A stretch of DNA of 64,000 nt from an uncultured Actinomycetes bacterium (GCA_963742735.1 CAVUMN010000004.1:992001-1056000); one strand, 5' to 3'; positions 9,545 through 47,005 are shown, numbered from the stretch's first letter. The notes: generated by a model from the sequence alone, not told the origin. Program-made: numbers and translations.

Positions 9545-10969
9545 GTGAGCGACGACGCCTCCGACACTCACTTCCCCGACGAATCTCCTCGCGAAGCGTG
9601 CGGCCTGTTCGCCATCTGGGCCCCCGGCGAGGAGGTGGCTCGGCACATCTACTTCGGGCTCTTCGCCCTGCAGCACCGCGGCCAGGAGTCGGCCGGGATC
9701 GCGGTCAGCGACCGCAGCAACATCCTGGTCTACCGCGAGCTCGGGCTGGTCTCGCAGGTGTTCAACGAGGCCACGCTGGCCACGCTCCAGGGCGACCTGG
9801 GGATCGGCCACACCCGCTACTCGACGACCGGCTCGACCACCTGGGAGAACTCCCAGCCGGCGTTCAAGCACGAGGAGAGCCACGGGCTGGCCCTCGGCCA
9901 CAACGGCAACCTGGTGAACACGGTCGAGCTGGCGGAGCGCGCCGGCTGGCGTGGCGGGGCGACCACCGACTCGGACCTGGTGGCGACGCTGATCATGCGC
10001 GAGGCCAGCCTCGCGGGCGGGGTCGAGGAGGGGGCCATGCGCGTCCTGCCCACCCTGGAGGGCGCGTTCTCGTTCGTCCTGATGGACGAGCGCACGATCT
10101 ACGGCGTGCGCGACCCCCACGGGCTGCGCCCGCTGGCCATCGGCCGGCTGCCCTCGGGGTTCGTGTTGGCCTCGGAGACCGCGGCCCTGGACATCGTGGG
10201 CGCGACCTACATCCGCGAGGTCGAGCCCGGCGAGATGGTGATGATCGACGACCGCGGCATCCGCTCCCGCACGTACGCGGAGAGCCCCCGCGCGGCGCTG
10301 TGCCTGTTCGAGTTCGTGTACCTGGCCCGGGCGGACAGCCGGCTGTACGGGCGCAGCGTCCACGAGGCGCGGCGGGAGATGGGCCGCAAGCTCGCCGGGG
10401 AGGCGCCGGTCGAGGCCGACCTGGTCATCCCGGTGCCGGACACCGCCGCGTCGGCCGCCGCCGGGTTCGCCGAGGCCTCGGGGATCCCGTACGGCGAGGG
10501 CCTGATGAAGAACCGCTACGTCGGCCGGACGTTCATCCAGCCGTCGACCTCCCTGCGCGCGCTGGGCGTTCGGATGAAGCTCAACCCGCTGCCGGAAGCG
10601 ATCGCGGGGAAGCGCCTGGCGGTGGTGGACGACTCGATCGTGCGGGGAACGACCACGCGGCAGATCGTGCAGACCCTGCGCGAGGCGGGCGCCGCCGAGG
10701 TCCACCTGCGGATCACCAGCCCGCCCATCCGCTGGCCCTGCTTCTACGGCATCGACATGTCCACCCGCCAGGAGCTCGTGGCGTCGGACCTCGCCGTCGA
10801 GGAGGTCCGGCGGTTCGTGGCCGCCGACTCGCTGTCCTACCTTTCCCTCGACGCGCTCGTGGAGGCGACGGGCGCGCCGAAGGCGTCGTTCTGCCGGGCC
10901 TGCTTCGACGGGGAGTACCCCGTGGCGGTCCCCGAGCAGGCCTCGAAGTTCGTCCTGGAAAAGCCCTAG
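9545..10969 (+). CDS. purF: amidophosphoribosyltransferase
   Basis: propeptide followed by EACGLF, LQHRGQESAG, IGHTRYST, VVDDSIVRGTT, FCRACFDGEYP. Confidence 0.95.
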   Translation: MSDDASDTHFPDESPREACGLFAIWAPGEEVARHIYFGLFALQHRGQESAGIAVSDRSNILVYRELGLVSQVFNEATLATLQGDLGIGHTRYSTTGSTTWENSQPAFKHEESHGLALGHNGNLVNTVELAERAGWRGGATTDSDLVATLIMREASLAGGVEEGAMRVLPTLEGAFSFVLMDERTIYGVRDPHGLRPLAIGRLPSGFVLASETAALDIVGATYIREVEPGEMVMIDDRGIRSRTYAESPRAALCLFEFVYLARADSRLYGRSVHEARREMGRKLAGEAPVEADLVIPVPDTAASAAAGFAEASGIPYGEGLMKNRYVGRTFIQPSTSLRALGVRMKLNPLPEAIAGKRLAVVDDSIVRGTTTRQIVQTLREAGAAEVHLRITSPPIRWPCFYGIDMSTRQELVASDLAVEEVRRFVAADSLSYLSLDALVEATGAPKASFCRACFDGEYPVAVPEQASKFVLEKP

Positions 10970-10985
10970 CGCGTACCCTGCGCCC

Positions 10986-11999
10986 ATGAGCGAGGCCTAC
11001 CGCCGGGCCGGCGTCGACCTCGACGCGGCCGCCCGGGCCGTCGACCTGATCAAGGGCGTCGCCGCGTCCGCGACCCGTCCCGAGGTGGTGGAGGGCGTCG
11101 GCGGGTTCGCCGGCCTCTACCGCCTGGACGACGGCCGCATACTGGCGGCGGCCACCGACGGCGTGGGGACGAAGCTCGAGGTCGCCCGCCTGGCCGGCCG
11201 GTTGGACACCGTGGGCATCGACCTGGTGGCCATGTGCGTGAACGACCTGATCTGCACGGGGGCCGAGCCGCTGTTCTTCCTGGACTACCTGGCCACGGGG
11301 CGGGTCGTGCCGGAGGAGGTCCGCGACCTGGTGGCCGGCGTCGCCGAGGGATGCCGCCAGGCGCGGTGCGCGCTCCTGGGCGGCGAGACCGCCGAGCACC
11401 CGGGAACCATGGAGGAGGGCCGGTTCGACCTGGCCGGGTTCGCGGTGGGGGTCGTCGCCGAGGACGAGCTGATCGGGCCCGACCTGGTCCGCGAGGGCGA
11501 CGCGCTGGTGGGCATCGCGTCCAGCGGCCTGCACGCGAACGGCTTCAGCCTGGTTCGGAAGGCGCTGCTGGAGGACGCCGGGATGACCCTCGATGACGTC
11601 CCGGAGGGCCTCGACCGAACGCTGGGCCGCGAGCTGTTGGAGCCGACGCGGATCTACGTCGACCTGCTGCTGCCGCTGGCCCGCGCCGGGGTGCTGTCGG
11701 CCGCGGCCCACGTGACGGGGGGCGGCTTGGTCGAGAACGTCCCCCGGGCGCTGCCGGACGGGCTGGGCGCCGAGATCGACCCGGTCGCGTGGCACGTCCC
11801 GCCCATCTTCCGCATCGTCCGCGACGCCGCCGACGCGACGGAGGACGACCTGCGGGCGACGTTCAACCTCGGCGTTGGGATGGTCGCCGTGACCGCCCCG
11901 GGCGTTGCCGCGAAGGTGATCGACGCCGCCGCCGATGCCGGGGTCCCCGCGTGGGAGATCGGAAAGGTCGTCGCGGGCCCCGGCGTTCGGTTCACCTAG
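10986..11999 (+). CDS. purM: AIR synthetase
   Basis: YRRAGVD, TDGVGTK, GGETAEHPG, SSGLHANGFSL, AHVTGGG. Confidence 0.95.
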   Translation: MSEAYRRAGVDLDAAARAVDLIKGVAASATRPEVVEGVGGFAGLYRLDDGRILAAATDGVGTKLEVARLAGRLDTVGIDLVAMCVNDLICTGAEPLFFLDYLATGRVVPEEVRDLVAGVAEGCRQARCALLGGETAEHPGTMEEGRFDLAGFAVGVVAEDELIGPDLVREGDALVGIASSGLHANGFSLVRKALLEDAGMTLDDVPEGLDRTLGRELLEPTRIYVDLLLPLARAGVLSAAAHVTGGGLVENVPRALPDGLGAEIDPVAWHVPPIFRIVRDAADATEDDLRATFNLGVGMVAVTAPGVAAKVIDAAADAGVPAWEIGKVVAGPGVRFT

Positions 12000-21122: not shown

Positions 21123-21197
21123 GGTGGCGAGGGGCGGATTCGAACCGCCGACACCGCGGTTTTCAGCCGCGTGCTCTGCCAACTGAGCTACCTCGCC
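21123..21197 (-). tRNA. tRNA-Phe(GAA)
   Basis: GGCGAGGTAGCTCAGTTGGCAGAGC...CTGAAAA...GGTTCGAATCC. Confidence 0.95.
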
Positions 21198-21239
21198 TCG
21201 CTGCAAACGAGACCGACCTCTTCGGCCGGCCTCGCTGAG

Positions 21240-21314
21240 CGGTCCGGACGGGATTTGAACCCGCGATCTCCGCCTTGACAGGGCGGCGTCCTAACCAGAC
21301 TGGACCACCGGACC
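21240..21314 (-). tRNA. tRNA-Asp(GTC)
   Basis: GGTCCGGTGGTCCAGTCTGGTTAGGAC...CTGTCAA...GGTTCAAATCC. Confidence 0.95.
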
Positions 21315-21329
21315 AAGCTAGATTTCTTG

Positions 21330-21402
21330 TGCCCCCAACGGGATTCGAACCCGTGCCGCCGCCTTGAAAGGGCGGTATCCTGGGCCGCTAGACGATGGGG
21401 GC
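21330..21402 (-). tRNA. tRNA-Glu(TTC)
   Basis: GCCCCCATCGTCTAGCGGCCCAGGA...CTTTCAA...GGTTCGAATCC. Confidence 0.95.
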
Positions 21403-37414: not shown

Positions 37415-38659
37415 ATGGTATTTCAGCCAGCAGCCGCGATGGTGCTCGAGCGCGCAACCTCGGGGGCGGTCGTACTCCGGTCCGATTTCGATGTGCTGTC
37501 CAGGAGGATCCACGGAAAGCCGCTGATCTATCTGGACAGCGCGGCGACGAGCCTCAAGCCGCGCGCGGTCATCGCGGCCATGAATGCCTACTACGCGCAG
37601 TACCCCGGCAACGTCTTCCGGGGCAACCACCTGCTGGCAGAGGAGGCCTCGGACGCCTTCGACGCCGCCCGGACGGCGGTCGCCGAACACATCGGCGGAG
37701 ACCCGCTCGAGGTCACGTTCTGGGCCAACACCACCGACGCCATCAACGCCGTCGCCCGGGGGCTCCGCCTCACGACCGAGGACCGCGTGGTGGTCCCGGT
37801 CAGTGAGCACCATTCGAACTTCCTGCCCTGGCTCCGCGGCGCCAGTGTGGACCTCGTGCCGGTCGATCGTGAGGGGTTCGTCGACCCGGCGGAGATCCGC
37901 TCGCGGCTCGAGCGCGGTCCGCGTCCGCGCCTCGTGGCCCTCGGCCATGTGTCCAACGTCACCGGCGCGATCCAGGACGTCGCGCAGATCGGCCGGCTGT
38001 GCAACGAGTTCGGCGTCCCCCTGCTGGTGGACGGGGCGCAGGCCGCCCCCCATCTGCCGGTGGACGTCGAGGAGCTCGGCTGCAGCTTCTACGCCTTCTC
38101 GGCGCACAAGATGCTCGGCCCCACCGGCGTCGGGGCCCTGTGGGGCCGGCTGGACGAGATGGAGCGACTCGAGCCGGTCCGCCTGGGCGGCGGGACCGTG
38201 CTGCGCGTCCAGAAAGACCGCTTCGAGCTCAAGGATCCGCCTCACAACTTCGAGGCGGGTACGCCCAACATCGCCGGGGTGATCGGGTTCGGAGCCGCGA
38301 TCCGCTACCTGCAGGCGGTGCCCGAGCGGGCCGCCGCCGAGACGGAGCGTCGGCTGGCCGGCCGGATGCTGGAGCGGGCCGCGGGGCACTCCCAGCTCCG
38401 CGTGCTGGGACCGCAGACGACCGACCGGCGCATCGCCCTGGTGACGCTCCTGGTGGACGGGCCCCAGTCGGCGGACCTCCTGTCGTTCAAGCTGTCCGAC
38501 CGTCACGCCGTGATGACCCGCAGCGGCACCCACTGCGCACAGCCGTTCTTCAGCTCGATCGGCGCCCCGACCAGCGTGCGCCTGTCCGCGTACCTCTACA
38601 CGACGGTCGGGGAGATCGACACGGCGTTCGACGCCATCGAGAGCATCCTGGCGGACTGA
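37415..38659 (+). CDS. cysteine desulfurase, SufS/CsdA group
   Basis: YLDSAATSLKP, DGAQ, SAHKMLGPTGVG (PLP Lys), RSGTHCAQP (catalytic Cys). Confidence 0.9.
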   Translation: MVFQPAAAMVLERATSGAVVLRSDFDVLSRRIHGKPLIYLDSAATSLKPRAVIAAMNAYYAQYPGNVFRGNHLLAEEASDAFDAARTAVAEHIGGDPLEVTFWANTTDAINAVARGLRLTTEDRVVVPVSEHHSNFLPWLRGASVDLVPVDREGFVDPAEIRSRLERGPRPRLVALGHVSNVTGAIQDVAQIGRLCNEFGVPLLVDGAQAAPHLPVDVEELGCSFYAFSAHKMLGPTGVGALWGRLDEMERLEPVRLGGGTVLRVQKDRFELKDPPHNFEAGTPNIAGVIGFGAAIRYLQAVPERAAAETERRLAGRMLERAAGHSQLRVLGPQTTDRRIALVTLLVDGPQSADLLSFKLSDRHAVMTRSGTHCAQPFFSSIGAPTSVRLSAYLYTTVGEIDTAFDAIESILAD

Positions 38660-38672
38660 GGCCCGCGCGGGC

Positions 38673-39788
38673 TCAGGGTCCCGCGGCGCCCGTCAGCGTC
38701 CCGAGGAGCCAGCCGAGGACCAACACGCCCCCCGCCGCCAGCAGTACGGAGGAGACGGCGGCGCCGATCGCGTAGGTCACGTACAGGCGACGCAGCCTCG
38801 CGGGGACAACCGGCGCCGGCTCGGTGGAGCGGCCGAGCGCCCGCTTCACCCAGCCGGTGACGTGGTCGATCGACCGGCGCCGCAGGTTCGGCGTGTCGAC
38901 CGCGTTCGACAGAAGCAGATAGCCGTCACCGCTGAGGAAGGGGATGAGCGTGCGCACCGCCCCGATGAGGTTGACCACCATGAAGGCGACGGCGCCCCGG
39001 GCGGCGAGACCTCCCGGCGGGGACCCCCACCACGCCAGCGTCGCAAGGGCCCACAGGACGATGGTGGCGAACGGGCCGGCGATGATCACGCCGGCGCGGC
39101 TCCGCCGGTCCGGAAAGAGCCAGGCGTCGCTGACGTCGGTGTAGAACCGGGGCAGCAGGTAGTGCAGGATTGCGCCCATCCGCCGCACGCTGCCGCCGTG
39201 GGCTTTCACGGCCAGGCCGTGCATGAGCTCGTGGATCGAGACGCTGACGACCAGGGCCGGGACCAGGAGCCCGACCCCCGCGGGTGAGGCCAGGGTCTCG
39301 ATCCCGTCCAGGACTTCGCCGAGCTCCAGGACCCACACCCCCGCAGCCACCAGGATCGGGACGGCCGCGGCGAGCACGAAGGCCCGGGAGAACAGGAAGC
39401 GCGTGCCGCGCAGGAGCCCCGTCAGGAACCGGTCGGGATCGACCTCGAACGGCAGACGAACGTAGAACAGCTTCCGGAGCGGGCCACCGGAGATCCCCAG
39501 GTCCTCCTCCGGTCCGGCGACCTCCTCTCCCGGAGCGACGATGAGCTGCAGCCCGTGGAGGCGGTCGCGGAACCGCTCCAGATTCTCGATGGGGGCGACC
39601 ACGCCGTGCTCGGTCTCGAGCCGGCCCCGGATCTCCTCGAGGGTCGAGGCGCCGTCGAAGTGGCGCGCCACGAGCATCTCGGCGGCGCCCAGCCGCACGA
39701 AGGTGTTGCGGACCGGGTCCTTGACGACGAAGTGGGACTCCTGCGGGACGATGACGAGATCGGGACGCAGGCGCAGCAGCCGCGTCAC
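38673..39788 (-). CDS. M50/site-2-type membrane zinc protease with N-terminal PqqD/RRE-like domain
   Basis: IHELMH, YTDVSDAW, AGP, LIPFLSGDGY; N-terminal VKDPVRNTFVRLG...FDG; GTGA-coupled to the upstream peptide. Confidence 0.8.
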   Translation of the reverse strand: MTRLLRLRPDLVIVPQESHFVVKDPVRNTFVRLGAAEMLVARHFDGASTLEEIRGRLETEHGVVAPIENLERFRDRLHGLQLIVAPGEEVAGPEEDLGISGGPLRKLFYVRLPFEVDPDRFLTGLLRGTRFLFSRAFVLAAAVPILVAAGVWVLELGEVLDGIETLASPAGVGLLVPALVVSVSIHELMHGLAVKAHGGSVRRMGAILHYLLPRFYTDVSDAWLFPDRRSRAGVIIAGPFATIVLWALATLAWWGSPPGGLAARGAVAFMVVNLIGAVRTLIPFLSGDGYLLLSNAVDTPNLRRRSIDHVTGWVKRALGRSTEPAPVVPARLRRLYVTYAIGAAVSSVLLAAGGVLVLGWLLGTLTGAAGP

Positions 39789-39985
39789 AGAGCCACCTTG
39801 TACTCGAGCTGTTCCACCTCCTCGAGATCGAGCACGGTGCCCGCCTTCACGAAGATCTCGGAGAGGCTGAGCGATCCGGGTCTGATCTCGACCAGCTCCA
39901 CCGACACGCCCGGGAGCGGGTCGACCTGCCACTCCAGGAAGTCGGCCTCGACGCCGGGGGGCGGCGCGAACGGTCCCTCGGTCAC
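39785..39985 (-). CDS. 66-aa acidic peptide, putative pearlin scaffold/precursor peptide
   Basis: GTG start with GGAG RBS, GTGA overlaps at both ends; ends VLDLEEVEQLEYKVAL. Confidence 0.75.
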   Translation of the reverse strand: MTEGPFAPPPGVEADFLEWQVDPLPGVSVELVEIRPGSLSLSEIFVKAGTVLDLEEVEQLEYKVAL

Positions 39986-41220
39986 GAGCCCGCTCCGTTC
40001 CCGGTCGTGAGACTCCGTCCGCTCGCCGTCCAGCTCGCCATCCCGCCGTCGAGCCAGCCCGCGCGGGCGAACCCCAGATCGGCCAGGGACTTGGCGGCGA
40101 GGGCCGAACGCTCGCCGGTGTCGCAGTAGCAGACGACGGGGAGCCTCGTGTCGGCGAGCTCGGCGATGGCCACCTCTTCGACCGTTCCTCTCGGAACGCT
40201 CAGGGCGCCGGGGATGTGACCCGCCAGGAACTCCTCCGGCTGGCGAACGTCCAGCAACACCCCGCGACCGAGTGCCTCGTCGGCCCCGGACAGGTCGGCG
40301 GCCGCCACGCCCTCCCGCGCCTCCGCCACCAGGTCCTGGAGGGTTCTGGCCTCCGGTGACGCGTCCGCCGACCCCGGCGCCGCGGGCTTGTTGGCGGCGG
40401 CGAGGATCCACTCGACCTGCAGCCGGATGCCCTCTTCGGTCGCGTGGCGGGACACGGTCTCCTTGATCTCGCGGACGATCGGTTCCTGGGTCTCGGGCGG
40501 CTCGCGCCTGAACCGGTACGTGAAGGAGGCGACGGTGGTCAGGTAGAGGTCCCAGTACGTGTCGGCATCCTTCGTGGTGATCATCGTCGCGTAGCGGCCC
40601 GTCCATGCTTCGACGAAGCCGGCGCGGTGGAGCGTGGCCTCGGCCGCGCCCTCGGGAGCGAACCGGAAGTTCGACGGACCGCCCTGGTACAGCAGCACCG
40701 TCGGAAGGTGCTTCATGACGATGCGCAGGGGCACCATGAGGTAGGGCGAGTTCTCGGATCGCCCGATGACACCGAACGCGAACCGTCCGCCCGGCTTCAG
40801 GACCCGATGAGCCTCGGTCAGGGCCTGATGGTCGTCGGGCACGTACATCAGCGTGTACTGGGAGATCACGACGTCGAAGCTCTCATCGGGGAAGGTGAGG
40901 TCCTCGGCGTCCATGACCTGGAAGGTGACGTTCGTGTCCCCGCGAGTACGCGCCTTCTCCTCGGCCAGTCGCACCATCTCCGGCGCGATGTCGATCCCTA
41001 CCACCGAGCCGGAGGGCCCCACGAGGTCCGCGGCCAGGAAGGCGTCGGCGCCGGTCCCGCACCCCACGCTCAGCACGCGGTCGCCGGGCTTGATCCGCGC
41101 CTCGTCCAGCAGGCGGACATGCAGGGGCAGCATCAGCGCCTGAAGGCCCCCGTCGTAAACGGGCGCCAGCTCGTCCCAGTACAGGCGCTGCTTCCTCTTA
41201 TAGGCCCGCGCGCTGAACAC
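39982..41220 (-). CDS. class I SAM methyltransferase-rhodanese fusion (catalytic Cys present)
   Basis: VLSVGCGTG, GIDIA, DAEDL; LLDVRQPEEF..GHIPGA, CYCDTGERS. Confidence 0.85.
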   Translation of the reverse strand: MFSARAYKRKQRLYWDELAPVYDGGLQALMLPLHVRLLDEARIKPGDRVLSVGCGTGADAFLAADLVGPSGSVVGIDIAPEMVRLAEEKARTRGDTNVTFQVMDAEDLTFPDESFDVVISQYTLMYVPDDHQALTEAHRVLKPGGRFAFGVIGRSENSPYLMVPLRIVMKHLPTVLLYQGGPSNFRFAPEGAAEATLHRAGFVEAWTGRYATMITTKDADTYWDLYLTTVASFTYRFRREPPETQEPIVREIKETVSRHATEEGIRLQVEWILAAANKPAAPGSADASPEARTLQDLVAEAREGVAAADLSGADEALGRGVLLDVRQPEEFLAGHIPGALSVPRGTVEEVAIAELADTRLPVVCYCDTGERSALAAKSLADLGFARAGWLDGGMASWTASGRSLTTGNGAGS

Positions 41221-41229
41221 CGCTGCTCC

Positions 41230-42384
41230 TCACTCGGGGGAGGTGGGGGGGATGGGGGGCTCCGCGGGCTCGGGGAGCTCGACCTCGTAGCCGTACCGCT
41301 GCCAGGCGCGGACGCCCCCGACCAGGTTCCAGACGTTCCGGTATCCGAGCTCCTCCAGGCGGAGCGTAGCCAGGAGCGAGCGCCGGCCGTCCTCGCTGTA
41401 CACCGCCACCGCGGCCGGGCCGTCGGGGAGGGCTTCGTCCACCGCCGTCTCGAGCACTCCCCGGGGCACGTGCACCGAACCCGGCACGACTCCGGTCGAC
41501 CGCTCCCCGGCCTCTCGCACGTCGAGGAAGACGGTCCGCTTCCCCGGCACGCCGCGCCGGGCCTCGAACGGCGACAGCTCCCGGATCCGGGGGCGGACCT
41601 CCGCCGTCAGCTCGTCGAAGGAACGGGGGCGGGCCAGCTCGGCCTCGTCGGCCGGTTTGGCCGCGGAGGCGTAGACGACCTCCATCGACAGGTGGGCCCC
41701 GCCGGGCGCGGCGCACAGCCGCTCCAGCCCGGCCTGCACCTCCGGGTACCGGACGTCGTCCCAGCGGGCGACGGAGGCCGCCGTCGACCACAGGCCCCAC
41801 GCGTCGGTGGCGCGAACGATGATCCGGATCTCCTGGGTGAGCACGTCGACGAATCCGGCCCGGCGCAAGGCCTCCTGCAGGGGGCCCGCGCCGTCCGTCT
41901 CGAACAACCGGTCGATGCCGGGCCCTCCTTCATCGCCGTTGTCGAGCAGCTCGTGGACCGCCGTGACGAACGTGTTGCGCTCGTGCGCACCGAGCGTCAG
42001 CAGCACCAGGCGGCCGGCGCGCCTCAGCACGCGTCGGGCTTCGGACAGGGCCCGGGCCGGGTGGTCCGCGGCGATGAGGCCGAGCTGAGAGAAGACGACG
42101 TTGATGCTCTCGTCGGGGAGATCGAGGGCCTCGAGGGAGCCCGTCCGGAGCTCCAGCTCGGGGCCGATCCCCAGGTTGGCCGCGTGACCGCGGGCAGCTT
42201 CGATCGCCGAGGCGGACGGGTCGATCCCGACCACGTGCCCGCCCGGAAGGACGCGCGAGGAAACGAGCACGGACACGGGGCCGTCCCCGCACCCCAGATC
42301 GAGAACCGACGCGCCGGGGCCGAGCTTGCCGAGATCGATCAGCTTTTCCGTCGCGGGACGCAGCAGCGCGGCGGAGGCCGACAT
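41230..42384 (-). CDS. class I SAM methyltransferase-rhodanese fusion (Cys replaced by Ser)
   Basis: VLDLGCGDG, GIDPS; FLDVRE..E, VYSEDGRRS, LVGGVRAW. Confidence 0.85.
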   Translation of the reverse strand: MSASAALLRPATEKLIDLGKLGPGASVLDLGCGDGPVSVLVSSRVLPGGHVVGIDPSASAIEAARGHAANLGIGPELELRTGSLEALDLPDESINVVFSQLGLIAADHPARALSEARRVLRRAGRLVLLTLGAHERNTFVTAVHELLDNGDEGGPGIDRLFETDGAGPLQEALRRAGFVDVLTQEIRIIVRATDAWGLWSTAASVARWDDVRYPEVQAGLERLCAAPGGAHLSMEVVYASAAKPADEAELARPRSFDELTAEVRPRIRELSPFEARRGVPGKRTVFLDVREAGERSTGVVPGSVHVPRGVLETAVDEALPDGPAAVAVYSEDGRRSLLATLRLEELGYRNVWNLVGGVRAWQRYGYEVELPEPAEPPIPPTSPE

Positions 42385-42447
42385 GGCTCGATGCTACAAG
42401 GCCCTCGGCGAACTCGGGCCACCCGTGAAGGGGGCCTTCATGGCCTC

Positions 42448-44739
42448 CTACCGGTCCAGACAGACCGTCGCCCGGAGCTCGGAGGTGTACGTGGCGCCGG
42501 CGGGGTCCTCGAGCCACAGCTCGCCCGGTCCGGGGAGCATCTCGGTGACCGAGAGGGCCGGAGCCTCCTGGGCGAGCTTGTACAGGATCTCGACCAGGAA
42601 GAAGCTCGTGAAGTCGACGAAGATCGGCTTCGGCTCGGCGGGGGATTTGACGAAGACGCGATCGGGCATGCCCAGCTCGCGCTGAATCCGGCGGACCCAC
42701 GCCAGTCGCTCGGCCGAGTCCGGCTGGGCCCGGCACGCACGCAAGCGGCCGGCCTCGAGGACCCACGACCGCCGCCTGACCACGACGTCTCCCAGCACCA
42801 CGCGGGGCGCCGCCGTGGCCGGGGGAAGCTCGACCGGATCGATCCCGAGCAGCCGGTGCTGCAGGAACCCGGTCAGCACCGAGAACAGCCAGGTCAGCGG
42901 GCCGCCGTCGCGAGCGCGGACGAACAGCTCGCCGTCGTCCTCCACCACCTCGAGCCGGGCCACGGGGATCGTCCGGTCGTCGGGGTACCGGGAGGCGGCG
43001 CCCTCGGTGAGGATCTCGTGGAAGCCGGGGAGGTCGGGCCAGTTCATGTCGGAGCGCTGGTAGGCGGAGGGAGCGTCGGTCAGGGCCACGACCGGGGGCT
43101 CGACCGCGGCCAGGATCTCCCTGGACAGCGCTTCGGGGTCGGGACAGAACGGCATCGCGGCGGGCTGCGCGGCCAGGAACACCGCCTTGTGGAGCTCCCC
43201 GAGCACGATCGTCCCGCCACCGGTGGCGGCCTCATGGGATGAGGCGGCTACGAGCAGGTCGAGCGAGTGGAAGCGCGCACCGAGAACCTCGCGCCCGGCA
43301 TGCGACTCGGGGCCGGCCAGCAGGGCGAGCACCTTCGTGCAGTCCTCGGGCGTGATCACCAGCAGGGGTGCCGGGTCGCCGAGGCGATCGCCCAGCACGT
43401 TCTGCCAGGCCCCGGCGATCTCTCGGCGCAGTTCGGCGTCGGGGGCGGCTTCCTCACCGATCCAGGCGGTCTCGCGGACGAAGCGCACGAAGTCGACCGG
43501 GGCCTCGCCGCCCAGCCGCAGGAAGATCTCTCGGAACCTGGTCTCGTACCGCCGGGCGAGCTCCGCGGTGATCCACCGTGCAATCTCGAGCAGGGCGGTG
43601 AGCGGCTCCAGCCGGCGGATGAAGCGCCGTCCCAGCCGCGGGGGCTCGGCGTTGCGCTCGCAGTCCTCGTACACCAGCCCCCGTCCGGCGTACATCTGTC
43701 CGAGCCGGCGCGACGGCGCGCGGCCCGTCAGCTCGGCGAACCGGGCCTCGACGTCGTCCATCAGGCGCCGTCGGTCGGCGAGCCCCGCGTCGCCGATCGC
43801 ACCGGCGGACTCGTAGAACCAGCGGATCCGGGGCTCCCATCGGCTGCGGGCCGGCTCATCCAAATCACCCACGCGGGCGAGCAGGGCACCTTCGGGCCGG
43901 TGGATCACGGTGGGGATCAGGATGTCCCGCGTGACGACCCGCCGGGCGAGGAGCTCCTCGGCCACGTTCTCCGGCGAGGGTCCCGCAAGCGAGAACGCGG
44001 GGTCGGCTTCGAGCTCCTCGAGGAGCTCGGCCCACGTTCGGGATCCGTCGCAGCGCTCCAGCACGGCCACCCACCGATCGGAGGCCTCGGTCCGCTGGTC
44101 CACCGGGTAGTGCAGGGTGCGGCCGTCCAAGCGGCACGCCGGGCTGAGCGTGGGCACGAGCTGGGCGGCGACGTCCGGGTCGCGCCCGACCGCCCGGGCC
44201 AGCTCCTGAACGGCCCAGTGCTCGAAGGAGACGAGCCGGCGCGACACGAGGGGTCCCGGGGCCGGCGAGCAGGACACCCCCTCGTCGGCGTCCGGCTCGA
44301 ACCGCCCCCAGGCGACCGGGCCGAAGAAACTGGCGGTCTCGTTCTTCGTCGCCAGGCGCTGCAGGTACTTGGCTGCGGTCGTCTCCTTCTGCCGGGACCG
44401 GCTGTTACGAGGACGGAGCTCCCGGGCGAGGTGACCCTCGATCGTCTCGAGGAAGCGCGGGTTCATCAGGAAGAGCGCCTCCCGCACCCGGTCACCGGTC
44501 AGGACGTCGCGGAGGGCGATCCGGGCCCGTGTCAGCGCCTCGTGGACGGCGGACTCGGCTTCGTCCATCGCGGCCGCCCGCTCCGGAGTCGGCGCCCCGG
44601 CGTCCTCGAGGTCGAGCGCACGGTCCACGACATCCATCGCGGGCCCGAGCCCCAGACGGTCGATCAGGTCGAGCGGAAAACCGGCCGAGCGCATCCAGAC
44701 GAGCGCGCAGAAGGACCAGCCGTCGCTCAGGGGAACCAT
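42448..44739 (-). CDS. LanB glutamylation-domain-only protein (PEARL-like peptide aminoacyl-tRNA ligase)
   Basis: MRSAGFP, KYLQRLATKNETASFFGP, VLGELH, FVKSPAEPKPIFVDF, TEMLP..LWL...YTSELR; 763 aa, ends without an elimination domain. Confidence 0.85.
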   Translation of the reverse strand: MVPLSDGWSFCALVWMRSAGFPLDLIDRLGLGPAMDVVDRALDLEDAGAPTPERAAAMDEAESAVHEALTRARIALRDVLTGDRVREALFLMNPRFLETIEGHLARELRPRNSRSRQKETTAAKYLQRLATKNETASFFGPVAWGRFEPDADEGVSCSPAPGPLVSRRLVSFEHWAVQELARAVGRDPDVAAQLVPTLSPACRLDGRTLHYPVDQRTEASDRWVAVLERCDGSRTWAELLEELEADPAFSLAGPSPENVAEELLARRVVTRDILIPTVIHRPEGALLARVGDLDEPARSRWEPRIRWFYESAGAIGDAGLADRRRLMDDVEARFAELTGRAPSRRLGQMYAGRGLVYEDCERNAEPPRLGRRFIRRLEPLTALLEIARWITAELARRYETRFREIFLRLGGEAPVDFVRFVRETAWIGEEAAPDAELRREIAGAWQNVLGDRLGDPAPLLVITPEDCTKVLALLAGPESHAGREVLGARFHSLDLLVAASSHEAATGGGTIVLGELHKAVFLAAQPAAMPFCPDPEALSREILAAVEPPVVALTDAPSAYQRSDMNWPDLPGFHEILTEGAASRYPDDRTIPVARLEVVEDDGELFVRARDGGPLTWLFSVLTGFLQHRLLGIDPVELPPATAAPRVVLGDVVVRRRSWVLEAGRLRACRAQPDSAERLAWVRRIQRELGMPDRVFVKSPAEPKPIFVDFTSFFLVEILYKLAQEAPALSVTEMLPGPGELWLEDPAGATYTSELRATVCLDR

Positions 44740-44781: not shown

Positions 44782-46197
44782 ATGGGTTTGTACCGAGATG
44801 TGCTTCAGCAGGCCGCGGAGCTCGCCATCCAGTTCCTGGAGGAGCTGCCGGAACGGCGGATCACCCCCAGCGCCGACCTCGAGCTGCTCCGGGGGACGCT
44901 GGGCGGAGCCCTCCCCGAGCGGGGGGCCGAGCCGACCGAGGTCATCGCCGCGCTCGTCCGGGACGCCGACCCGGGACTCCTGGCCTCGGCCGGACCCCGC
45001 TTCTTCGCGTTCGTTTTCGGCGGCAACCTGCCTGCCGCCGTCGCCGCCGACTGGCTCACCTCCGCGTGGGACCAGAACGCCGGCGCCTATCTCTCCTCCC
45101 CCGCCCTGTCCGTCGTCGAGGAGACGGCGGGGAACTGGTTGCTCGAGCTGCTCGGCCTGCCCTCGGAGTGCAGCGTCGGGTTCACGACCGGCTGCCAGAT
45201 GGCGAACTTCACGGCCCTTGCCGCGGCCCGCCACAGCGTCCTGCGGCGGGCGGGCTGGGACGTCGAGGCCCAGGGGCTCCAGGGCGCCCCCGAAGTTCGC
45301 GTCCTCGTTGGCGCGGGGGCGCACGTGACGATCTTCGGAGCCCTCCGGTACCTGGGGCTCGGTGCGGGGCGGGCCGTCGTGGTCCCCGCCGACGCCCAAG
45401 GGCGGATGCAGCCCCGAGCCCTCCGCGAGGCGCTGGCGGCGGGAGACGGCCCCACGATCGTGTGCGCCCAGGCGGGCGAGGTGAACACCGGCGCCTTCGA
45501 TCCGCTGGACGAGGTCGCGGACGCCGTGCGCGAGCACGAGGGTGTGTGGCTCCACATCGACGGCGCGTTCGGCCTCTGGGCGGCGGCGGTCCCCTCGCTG
45601 CGTGAGCTGGTCCGCGGGCACGACCGGGCCGACTCGTGGGCGAGCGACGCGCACAAATGGCTGAACGTCCCGTACGACTCGGGCCTCGTCTTCGTCCGCG
45701 ACGTGGCCGCACACCGGGCGGCGATGTCCATGCAGGCCGCCTACCTCACGCCGGAGCTCCGGTCGGAGTTCGATCCGTTCGACTACGTCCCGGAGTTCTC
45801 CCGGCGGGCCCGCGGGTTCGCGGTCTACGCGGCGCTGCGGTCGCTGGGGCGTGACGGCATCGTCGAGATGGTGGAGCGGAACTGTCGGCAGGCCCGGCAG
45901 ATGGCCGCGCGTTTGAGCGAGGACCCGAGGGCGACCGTCCTAAACGACGTGGTGCTGAACCAGGTGCTCGTCCGGTTCGCACCGCCGGAGGGCGCGGACC
46001 CGTCGGCGGCCGCCGCCATGACGCAGCAGACGATGATGGGCGTGCAGATGGACGGCACCTGCATGGTCAGCGGGACGGAGTGGGACGGCCTGCCCGCGAT
46101 GCGGGTCTCGTTCACGTACTGGTCGACGACCGAAGACGACGTCGAGCGGTCCGCGCAGGCCATCCTCCGGGCGCTCGACACGGCGACCGTCCCGTAG
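44782..46197 (+). CDS. group II PLP-dependent amino acid decarboxylase
   Basis: WLHIDGAFG, SDAHKWLNVPYD, EFSRRARG. Confidence 0.9.
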   Translation: MGLYRDVLQQAAELAIQFLEELPERRITPSADLELLRGTLGGALPERGAEPTEVIAALVRDADPGLLASAGPRFFAFVFGGNLPAAVAADWLTSAWDQNAGAYLSSPALSVVEETAGNWLLELLGLPSECSVGFTTGCQMANFTALAAARHSVLRRAGWDVEAQGLQGAPEVRVLVGAGAHVTIFGALRYLGLGAGRAVVVPADAQGRMQPRALREALAAGDGPTIVCAQAGEVNTGAFDPLDEVADAVREHEGVWLHIDGAFGLWAAAVPSLRELVRGHDRADSWASDAHKWLNVPYDSGLVFVRDVAAHRAAMSMQAAYLTPELRSEFDPFDYVPEFSRRARGFAVYAALRSLGRDGIVEMVERNCRQARQMAARLSEDPRATVLNDVVLNQVLVRFAPPEGADPSAAAAMTQQTMMGVQMDGTCMVSGTEWDGLPAMRVSFTYWSTTEDDVERSAQAILRALDTATVP

Positions 46198-46219: not shown

Positions 46220-46297
46220 TGGTGGGCCGTGCAGGATTCGAACCTGCGACACATGGGTTAAAAGCCCACTGCTCTGACCAGGCTGAGCTAACGGCCC
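46220..46297 (-). tRNA. tRNA-Lys(TTT)
   Basis: GGGCCGTTAGCTCAGCCTGGTCAGAGC...CTTTTAA...GGTTCGAATCC...ACCA. Confidence 0.95.
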
Positions 46298-46336: not shown

Positions 46337-47005
46337 TCAGAAGCCCGTGATCAGCGCCCGCAGGAACAGGAACCCAACCGCGCCGGCGGCGCCGCCGGCG
46401 GCGACCAGCAGGTAGACACGGGTGCGGGCCTGTCTCGCGAAGACCCATGGGATCGCGAAGGCGCCGGCCAGCAAGGCGACGACGATGGTCAGGTCGATGA
46501 GCCGGTAGGACTCCGCGGCGAGGTTGTAGCGCCACACCCGGCGATCGAGGAGGAGGAAGATCGCCTCGGCGGTGAGCATCGCCGCCGGTGCGGCCACCGC
46601 GAGCGACCGGTACTGCCGCGACCCAGCCGCCACCGCCGCCCCGCTCAGACCCATCATCGGCCCGGCAGCCAGCGCGACGGCGGTCCAGATCACCGTAACC
46701 GACCCGCCCGCGTAGCCGCGCACGGCGGTCGCGCCGTAGTACGTGGCGACTCCCACGAGCAGTGTGAGCGTTCCGGCGAGCGCCCCCCGCCCGGGTGATG
46801 GGGCACGGAGGCCGACCAGGAAGGCCACGATCACCCAGGGCGCGGCGATGTTGCCGAGGATCGTGAACAGGCGTCCAGGCAGGATCCCGTCCGCGAGGAT
46901 CGAGAACACCCCCAGCCCGACGCCGGCCACGACCGCGAGGAGCAGCGGTCGCCGGAGGCGGATCGCGCCCGCCTTCGCCTCACCCTCCGAGGGCTCCGGA
47001 GCCAC
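46337..47005 (-). CDS. membrane protein (DUF6518-like)
   Basis: GNIAAPWVIVAF, ATYY, several TM helices; starts at the nadE stop. Confidence 0.7.
   Translation of the reverse strand: MAPEPSEGEAKAGAIRLRRPLLLAVVAGVGLGVFSILADGILPGRLFTILGNIAAPWVIVAFLVGLRAPSPGRGALAGTLTLLVGVATYYGATAVRGYAGGSVTVIWTAVALAAGPMMGLSGAAVAAGSRQYRSLAVAAPAAMLTAEAIFLLLDRRVWRYNLAAESYRLIDLTIVVALLAGAFAIPWVFARQARTRVYLLVAAGGAAGAVGFLFLRALITGF

Follow-up and report, generated by a model that had tools for sequence, protein, structure and literature searches.

In this work, we describe a small gene cluster in a 64,000-nucleotide (nt) stretch of DNA from an uncultured Actinomycetes bacterium (GCA_963742735.1, CAVUMN010000004.1:992001-1056000; this whole stretch is hereafter called the window, and positions in it are counted from its first letter). 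We consider it likely that the cluster encodes a pearlin-type pathway, in which a peptide aminoacyl-tRNA ligase (PEARL) would extend a scaffold peptide by one amino acid, and in which a persulfide relay from a SufS-like enzyme to a rhodanese, together with methylation by S-adenosylmethionine (SAM), would act on the scaffold-borne residue in place of an MNIO step. The product of the cluster is probably a small molecule that contains sulfur, made by a route that has not been described so far. The features concerned, in the order in which they lie in the window and with protein lengths in amino acids (aa), are the following.

37415..38659, plus strand: SufS-like (group II) cysteine desulfurase, 414 aa; PF00266 347 bits, TIGR01979 sufS 369 bits (below the cut-off of 475); convergent with the operon.
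38673..39788, minus strand: M50 HExxH intramembrane metalloprotease with an RRE-like N-terminus, 371 aa; PF02163, daptide_HExxH 175 bits (cut-off 300), HELMH motif.
39785..39985, minus strand: predicted acidic scaffold (carrier) peptide, 66 aa, ending ...LDLEEVEQLEYKVAL; GC3 0.90, GTGA overlaps at both ends, seven relatives.
39982..41220, minus strand: SAM methyltransferase-rhodanese fusion 2, 412 aa; class-I methyltransferase families and PF00581 (65 bits).
41230..42384, minus strand: SAM methyltransferase-rhodanese fusion 1, 384 aa; class-I methyltransferase families and PF00581; Ser330 in place of the catalytic Cys.
42448..44739, minus strand: stand-alone LanB-like enzyme, 763 aa; PF04738 only, PEARL-type active-site residues, tree placement.
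44782..46197, plus strand: group II decarboxylase dependent on pyridoxal phosphate (PLP), 471 aa; PF00282 157 bits; divergent from the PEARL gene.
46220..46297, minus strand: tRNA-Lys(UUU), a conserved anchor at the right edge of the variable region with the cluster.

Given the high G+C content of the window (71%), genes were called by the G+C content of the three codon positions (GC1/2/3). Five minus-strand genes form one tight operon, which runs from the LanB-like gene through fusions 1 and 2 and the 66-aa peptide to the M50 protease, all of them with a coding-type GC1/2/3 pattern and a GC3 of 0.90-0.93. GTGA overlaps couple fusion 2 to the peptide and the peptide to the protease, the GTG of the peptide lying on the stop codon of fusion 2 and the GTG of the protease on the stop codon of the peptide. 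An earlier note, made from the sequence of the window alone, had proposed these same five co-oriented genes as a new pearlin cluster, and all five are there, including the acidic 66-aa peptide and the 763-aa LanB-like protein, the motifs quoted for the latter being found in the translation of 42448..44739. The start that it gave to the protease gene (39932, for a 419-aa reading frame) was not kept, since the GTG at 39788, which overlaps the peptide stop as GTGA and gives 371 aa, is most likely the true start; the NCBIfam alignment of the protease begins just after this GTG. A unit of five genes also proved too narrow, for it missed the adjoining SufS-like desulfurase, which probably belongs to the cluster, and the divergent PLP decarboxylase, which possibly does. 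Only 13 nt separate the stop codon of the protease gene from that of the convergent SufS-like gene, and 42 nt separate the LanB-like gene from the decarboxylase gene. Scans for promoters and terminators, and the predicted fold of the convergent junction, gave nothing above chance.

Several lines of evidence support the assignment of the LanB-like enzyme to the PEARL type, that is, to the stand-alone enzymes without an elimination partner. As the earlier note had predicted, it matches PF04738 (74.7 bits, Pfam) and not PF14028; it has no NCBIfam match either. Exactly one LanB-like gene was found in the assembly (3.08 Mb, 88.9% complete), where searches for the PF14028 elimination domain, LanC, YcaO and MNIO (PF05114) returned no match, so that the absence of the first three, stated in that note for the window, holds for the whole assembly searched, as does its remark that a DUF692-type (MNIO) oxidase and multiple PEARLs are lacking. 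The PF14028 search did detect the domain in two control genomes, G002, which has two full-length LanBs, and G075.

The residues compared below come from published work. Arg743, Phe783 and Glu851 of TbtB are common to all these enzymes, whereas Asp542 and Arg803 of TglB are specific to PEARLs, Tyr and Leu standing there in split LanBs (PMC11117183). The ATP site of BhaB7 comprises Glu575, His577, Arg715, Phe755, Lys763, Glu813 and Arg815 (PMC12945691), and Tyr205 and Arg208 of the same enzyme are placed at the tRNA CCA end in published models (PMC11962472). In the window enzyme, the conserved E515, H517, R656, F696, K704, E754 and R756 match the ATP-site residues listed for BhaB7 at a constant offset of 59-60, D494 stands for the ATP/Mg-site Asp (Asp542 in TglB, Asp558 in BhaB7) and R756 for Arg803 of TglB, the TglB and BhaB7 residues being mapped by motif spacing and not by direct alignment. 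We aligned 73 sequences, namely 52 stand-alone LanB-like open reading frames (ORFs) from the loci described below, 18 database proteins including that of the window and three long ORFs from two full-length LanB loci. Glu754 and Arg756 (E754-L-R756) occur in all 70 stand-alone sequences, the window's included, while Asp494 and His517 are each found in 69 of the 70 and Glu515 in 63. At the position of E-x-R, the two genuine full-length LanBs have E-I-V and E-V-L, the Arg shown for them in the Arg756 column being an effect of gap placement. Y125, R128 and R17, the counterparts of Tyr205 and Arg208 of BhaB7 and of Arg10 of TglB, are invariant in an alignment of nine sequences; a Y-x-x-R is also present in TbtB and does not separate PEARLs from LanBs.

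A tree of 72 of these sequences over 715 columns (FastTree, LG+gamma, rooted on the full-length LanBs; one of the three long ORFs, an antisense artefact, was left out) places the window enzyme and its close relatives in one clade (support 0.993), which is joined by a PEARL from the myxobacterial locus L053 (1.0). This group is sister to a clade made up of tmo-type PEARLs and a third group (0.917), and all of them lie far from the full-length LanBs. The window enzyme thus falls among stand-alone PEARLs, as the earlier note expected.

The 66-aa peptide is, judged by its sequence and position, a real scaffold peptide. It contains 13 acidic and three basic residues and no Cys, and it ends in A-L, with Leu66 as the last residue. 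A motif scan of all loci showed that its C-terminus has an acidic helix and a K-[VI] motif in common with the peptides beside other PEARLs: those of the tmo-type loci L002 and L004-L006 end ...EEFDLDDIEVIESKVFG (the tmo-type motif is also given as ...FDLDDIEVIESKVFG), that of L058 has the C-terminus ...LDIDEVDVSESLERKISA, and the multi-PEARL locus L031 has a bha-type peptide ending ...LEEIEDKIAPLAL, in agreement with the tag LEEIEDKVAPLALA derived from BhaA, which PMC11962472 names in a section heading. The BhaA-like peptide of L031 lies at 243-389 of that contig. Seven relatives of the window peptide, at 46-73% identity, bring the family to eight members. One of them is encoded at L053:11843-12046, directly after a related PEARL gene in a myxobacterial genome (52% identity in the full alignment, 57% in the eight-sequence alignment). 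Two relatives of the eight, P0151 and P0160, end in K-I-A-L-C and so carry an extra, gene-encoded C-terminal Cys; P0142 ends in K-V-S-L-A-A. An exhaustive profile search with the peptide returned 23 proteins, from which six small ones were kept and 17 large ones (554-3260 aa, with several short matching stretches each) were set aside as acidic-repeat matches. A word-index search returned only the peptide of the window itself. In profile searches, 401 genomes from the phylum of genome G001 gave no match, and 401 from the phylum of the window gave the window alone. The fold predicted from the eight sequences, a shallow alignment, has no secondary structure (mean pLDDT, a confidence score of the predictor, 44.6).

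The protease gene that follows the peptide gene carries a HELMH motif and a PF02163 domain, and its product is 26-33% identical to the M50 proteins encoded after the PEARL in the tmo-type loci L002 and L004-L006. Its best named model is daptide_HExxH (NF041824); the tmo-type M50 proteins match this model too (108 bits), and the model therefore covers a wider family of M50 proteins from pathways to RiPPs, peptides that are made on the ribosome and modified afterwards. A daptide reading of the cluster was rejected, the score of the protease being below the cut-off and none of the seven gene products scoring with another daptide model. The HExxH part of the earlier description stands, while the RRE-like N-terminus gave no match to PqqD or any other family in a direct Pfam scan and is seen only by alignment, residues 13-83 aligning to the PqqD-matching part (PF05402, 26.6 bits) of a homologue at L054:2871-5369. 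A sequence search of the PDB with the protease found no match. TglG is a membrane protease with an RRE, which frees the product and regenerates TglA (PMC9016710), and the M50 protease of the window is a putative scaffold-recycling protease of the same kind.

The sulfur and methyl genes set this cluster apart. Fusions 1 and 2 are paralogues with 32% identity, and the domains that the earlier note had read in both were confirmed; what it had missed is that the rhodanese of fusion 1 has Ser330 at the catalytic position. In fusion 2 the rhodanese loop is intact, C364-Y-C366-D-T-G-E-R-S, of which we take Cys366 to be the catalytic residue. Both rhodanese parts score best with the MoeB-type model PRK08762. 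Searches returned 864 hits, of which 13 are fusion relatives and the remainder have no rhodanese domain; in an alignment of 11 of the 13 with the two fusions of the window, the catalytic Cys is kept in 10 of the 11 relatives, P0033 having a Ser like fusion 1. A PDB sequence search with fusion 2 gave generic methyltransferase and rhodanese matches only, and its structure predicted from the single sequence has a mean pLDDT of 35.9. An arsenic methyltransferase of the ArsM type was considered and rejected, as only the SAM core (residues 41-150) matches such models. The SufS-like gene begins with an ATG at 37415 preceded by GAGGAG, and its product is the probable source of sulfur for the rhodanese.

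Enzymes of this family are very rare: in 5.8 billion protein clusters there are about ten relatives of the LanB and thirteen of the fusions. Seven of the LanB relatives are full-length and 52-54% identical to the window enzyme, one is partial and one is 38% identical. Relatives of both the LanB and the methyltransferase-rhodanese proteins, at 52-57% identity, are found in Haliangium ochraceum and on three metagenome contigs. Four LanB relatives and fusion-2 relatives come from contigs of equal size (81970, 10355, 9096 and 9446314 bases), and in H. ochraceum the LanB relative ACY16840 (Hoch_4346) and the fusion relative ACY16838 (Hoch_4343) have a single accession number between them. Contig size is likewise equal for the peptide relative P0164 and a fusion relative (7553 bases), and for P0142 and the 38% LanB relative (10176 bases). 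A scan of genome contigs with a single protein confirmed no relative among 266 pattern stretches, and with a profile six loci were found, none of them outside 31-33% identity. Of the 30 loci from the metagenome scan, L007 (3.6 kb, partial) is the only close one; its PEARL gene is preceded by genes named OYE-like, TetR-like and HD-like by eye from their translations. The genomes of the order of G001 (0 of 147 at E<=1e-120) and of its class (0 of 401 at E<=1e-110) held no match, and H. ochraceum was not reached by these searches.

The loci L002 and L004-L006 are of the tmo type, with an MNIO (PF05114, 144 bits), a protein matching the TglI model (132 bits, cut-off 450), a PEARL, an M50 protease and a class-I methyltransferase; a radical SAM enzyme that depends on B12 (B12-rSAM) is present in L004 (by Pfam) and, by similarity, in L005 and L006, and L004 has a LysE as well. 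L053 encodes a LanC, a PEARL, an M50-HlyD fusion, a second PEARL, the peptide homologue, a SufS (560 bits) whose gene adjoins that of the peptide homologue, a SufU-CysM fusion and an S41 protease. In L054, also myxobacterial, we found a PqqD-M50-HlyD fusion, a PEARL, a methyltransferase, a SufS-like gene, a small PDZ protein and a second PEARL, so that in two myxobacterial loci related PEARLs have SufS-like genes as neighbours. A divergent pair of decarboxylase and PEARL genes, 35 nt apart, is also present in L055. The earlier note had asked whether the neighbourhood is conserved as a whole, and it is so in part: the pairing of LanB and methyltransferase-rhodanese recurs in the close family, and the M50 protease and the peptide recur in the more distant loci.

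Some further observations were made on these loci. The fusion of a SufU/NifU-like domain to a CysM-like cysteine synthase (cysM 264 bits, cut-off 394) lies at L053:13278-14606, directly after the SufS and the scaffold peptide. The L053 PEARL at 9575-11836 has no usual start codon before 9905, and the second PEARL of that locus, with intact residues, lies 5 kb upstream. PDZ-domain proteins of 120 aa are encoded after PEARL genes at L055:12465-12827 and L054:13710-14072; that of L055 ends ...LDVGDVSEVLERKISPAAR, resembling the C-terminal motif of the scaffolds, and a folded PDZ protein may serve as the scaffold in these two loci. The metagenome contigs L009, L010, L019, L022 and L031 carry three to six tandem PEARL genes each.

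Based on these data, the following pathway may be proposed. The 66-aa acidic peptide would be made first, and the PEARL would then phosphorylate the carboxylate of Leu66 with ATP and join to it an amino acid from an aminoacyl-tRNA. Cys is our best guess for this residue, held with slightly less than even confidence, because two of the eight peptide relatives end in K-I-A-L-C and the sister clade belongs to the tmo/tgl type, in which the PEARLs append Cys (PMC9303977, PMC9016710). The SufS-like enzyme would take the sulfur of free cysteine as a persulfide and pass it to Cys366 of the fusion 2 rhodanese. From there the sulfane sulfur could be transferred to the scaffold-borne residue, for example converting a thiol to a hydropersulfide, and the fused SAM methyltransferase could methylate the product, trapping the unstable intermediate as a methyl-(di)sulfide; a thiol acceptor would in this way make chemical sense of the methyltransferase-rhodanese fusion. 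Fusion 1, with a dead rhodanese and an apparently intact SAM site, may add a second methyl group or act as a partner. The RRE-M50 membrane protease would cut off the modified residue and free the scaffold for another round, and the amino acid, once released, may be converted to an amine by the PLP decarboxylase. The persulfide relay would thus take the place held by the MNIO pair TglH/TglI in tgl/tmo clusters.

A number of points weigh against this proposal. The co-occurrence of genes in the close family rests on equal contig sizes and neighbouring accession numbers, the DNA itself having been read for the 3.6-kb L007 alone. In L053, the PEARL beside the peptide homologue (9575-11836) has S, K and Y in place of Asp494, Glu515 and His517; it may be a non-catalytic paralogue, and L053 may therefore split the work between its two PEARLs. 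The specificity of PEARLs is not predictable (PMC9303977), so that the guess of Cys depends on two peptides without a visible gene context. The methyltransferase cores are like those of generic class-I enzymes, and the atom that accepts the methyl group is therefore not readable from them. Of the five class-V hits in the genome, that to the SufS-like gene is the best, and the SufB/SufD core domain (PF01458), present in all 14 control genomes, was not found in the 88.9%-complete assembly. The SufS-like enzyme could therefore have a housekeeping role, as the general desulfurase of the cell, and adjoin the cluster by chance. Finally, the decarboxylase recurs in one other locus only (L055) and is absent upstream of the PEARL gene in L007.

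The main alternative, which we regard as unlikely, is a peptidyl-thiocarboxylate route. The PEARL-like enzyme would make an acyl phosphate at the C-terminus of the peptide, to be attacked not by an aminoacyl-tRNA but by the rhodanese persulfide, which the SufS-like enzyme would load. The resulting peptidyl thiocarboxylate would be methylated on sulfur by the fused methyltransferase or would act as a sulfur donor, and the peptide would in that case be a ribosomally made sulfur carrier like CysO or ThiS with MoeZ, with no E1 enzyme. It would fit with this that the PEARL is the sole ATP-using activating enzyme in the cluster, that the rhodanese domains best match a MoeB-type model, and that in L053 the peptide homologue is found beside a SufS, a SufU-CysM fusion and an M50 protease, a set that we take to repeat the logic of the CysO/MoeZ/CysM/Mec+ cysteine pathway. 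PEARLs, moreover, do form acyl phosphates (PMC11962472, PMC11117183). Nevertheless, the window enzyme and all its close relatives retain, as Y125 and R128, the residues of the tRNA CCA end, which argues against this route, as an enzyme free of tRNA would not need them. The A-L end of the peptide also differs from the G-G end of known sulfur carriers, and a non-amine nucleophile is not known for any PEARL. The structure prediction for the peptide, of low confidence and from the shallow alignment given above, yielded no fold whatever and so no sign of a beta-grasp. If such a route were true, the cluster would hold a sulfur carrier made as a ribosomal peptide, with an ATP-grasp-derived enzyme in place of an E1 as its activator, a new type of reaction for the LanB/PEARL superfamily.

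A second alternative accepts the pearlin core and denies the relay: the SufS-like enzyme and the decarboxylase would be unrelated housekeeping neighbours, the rhodaneses would be non-catalytic, and there would be no sulfur beyond that of the appended residue. The rank of the SufS-like gene as the best SufS-type hit in the genome, the rhodanese that has already lost its Cys and the lack of a decarboxylase in L007 all agree with such a view. We think it improbable, however, in the light of the catalytic Cys kept in nearly all fusion relatives aligned, the SufS-like genes beside PEARLs in L053 and L054, and the divergent decarboxylase-PEARL pair of L055.

PEARLs acting on small molecules or on products of nonribosomal peptide synthetases (NRPSs) have been reported (bioRxiv 10.64898/2026.05.21.726688; PMC11212132; PMC10769383), and the enzyme of the window might likewise act on a small molecule or on the product of another pathway, as with sinefungin or the sna hybrid of NRPS and polyketide synthase (PKS), in which case the 66-aa ORF would not be its substrate. 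This is very unlikely, since translational coupling ties the peptide into the operon, since it is conserved next to a related PEARL of another phylum, has the C-terminal motif of known scaffolds and is followed by the gene of a TglG-like protease, and since no NRPS, PKS or nucleoside genes are present in the flanks examined. Weakest of all, and extremely improbable, is a lanthipeptide or thiopeptide pathway in which the enzyme would be a split LanB dehydratase and its elimination partner would be encoded elsewhere. This would accord with the PF04738 match and with the name "lantibiotic dehydratase" given to relatives in public sources, but not with an assembly, 88.9% complete, in which PF14028, LanC and YcaO were not found, with the E-x-R motif in place of E-x-L/V, with a peptide devoid of Cys, or with the weak similarity to solved split LanBs (TbtB 36.5 bits in a profile search, the goadsporin enzyme 26.7 bits) and the failure of blastp to match either of the two full-length LanBs at E<=1e-5. 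The PEARL reading of the earlier note, by comparison, is favoured by the active-site residues, the place in the tree, the C-terminus of the peptide, the homology of the protease and the pairing of PEARL with fusion.

The cluster stands among unrelated neighbours, encoding EF-hand, DUF1801, DUF1697, BNR, LigD primase-polymerase, DUF6518 and NadE proteins. No LanB-like match was found in 30 relatives of the genome, of which 29 belong to its order and one, 61% complete, to its genus. An unpublished genome, G154, enters only into tallies of this kind, and none of the claims made here depends on it. Among sequencing runs, one of DNA with a small share (0.08) was listed and none of RNA. In all four relatives that were read, NadE and then tRNA-Lys are kept, and the cluster genes do not follow there. 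The tRNA-Lys(UUU) of the window lies directly after the decarboxylase gene, and between it and NadE there is a DUF6518 gene (46337-47002) with no tblastn match in the loci of the four relatives, including the same-genus L066. A tRNA-Glu/Asp pair comes about 1 kb and about 11 kb further on in two relatives, as against about 24.8 kb in the window (21123-21402), and the genes of the left flank have no matches in the four relatives. The stretch between tRNA-Lys and tRNA-Glu/Asp looks like a variable region that holds the cluster. There is no second copy of the tRNA-Lys 3' end in the window and no att-like direct repeat was seen, no integrase search having been made. Such a variable region, together with nearest relatives that are myxobacterial, fits a horizontal gain of the cluster.

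Two main types of pearlin are described in the papers considered here, namely the 3-thia amino acids, made with an MNIO, and the pyrroloiminoquinones, made with several PEARLs; PEARLs have also been reported on NRPS products and on sinefungin. Our search of full-text literature found no paper that links PEARLs with rhodanese, with cysteine desulfurase or with Hoch_4343-4346, supplements, which may list this type of cluster, and subscription journals lying outside its scope. PEARL pathways as such are thus already known, and it is the set of sulfur-relay tailoring genes that appears to be new. If the proposal is true, a persulfide relay from cysteine desulfurase to rhodanese, fused to SAM methylation, would be a third tailoring logic on a scaffold peptide, and the cluster predicts a small sulfur metabolite not yet known. 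The methyltransferase-rhodanese fusion suggests the channelling of an unstable sulfur intermediate, which would be new enzymology. The seven genes are simple enough to be rebuilt in Escherichia coli, and a PEARL with a short and well-defined recognition motif may be offered for C-terminal labelling work.

Among known systems, the daptide protease family NF041824 provides the best named model for the M50 protease, at a score under its cut-off. In the anaerobic route to ergothioneine, EanA and EanB, a methyltransferase and a rhodanese-type sulfurtransferase, make a C-S bond together with a cysteine desulfurase; no EgtD-type methyltransferase homology was seen in the window enzymes, which, unlike these, are fused and belong to a scaffold-peptide cluster. 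In the CysO-MoeZ-CysM-Mec+ pathway and with the ThiS/MoaD carriers, a small carrier whose C-terminus is reactive is combined with the persulfide of a rhodanese, with a desulfurase and with a metalloprotease by which the product is freed. The window cluster likewise has a carrier, a rhodanese, a desulfurase and a metalloprotease, and L053 has even a CysM-like enzyme; on the other hand, the window cluster is without an E1-like adenylating enzyme and without CysM, its carrier ends in A-L and not G-G, and a PEARL would be the activator.

With the amm/bha pyrroloiminoquinone clusters (AmmB1-4, BhaB1/4/5/7) it shares a PEARL that would act on a scaffold and a peptide C-terminus like that of BhaA (PMC11962472). 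Those clusters have several tandem PEARLs, as do L009, L019 and L031, whereas the window genome has one, and no flavin-enzyme domain is present in the seven gene products of the window cluster. The likeness to the tgl/tmo clusters of 3-thiaglutamate and 3-thiahomoleucine (TglA/B/H/I/G, TmoA/B/H/I/S/D/G) includes an acidic scaffold with a similar C-terminal motif, a single stand-alone PEARL of the sister clade, an RRE-M50 membrane protease and a class-I SAM methyltransferase. The scaffold of the window differs from theirs in being longer, in its conserved, non-acidic N-terminal half and in ending in A-L instead of F-G. Lastly, no MNIO (TglH) or TglI was found in the window genome and no B12-rSAM gene in the cluster and its neighbours, whereas the window cluster has a SufS-like desulfurase and methyltransferases fused to rhodanese.

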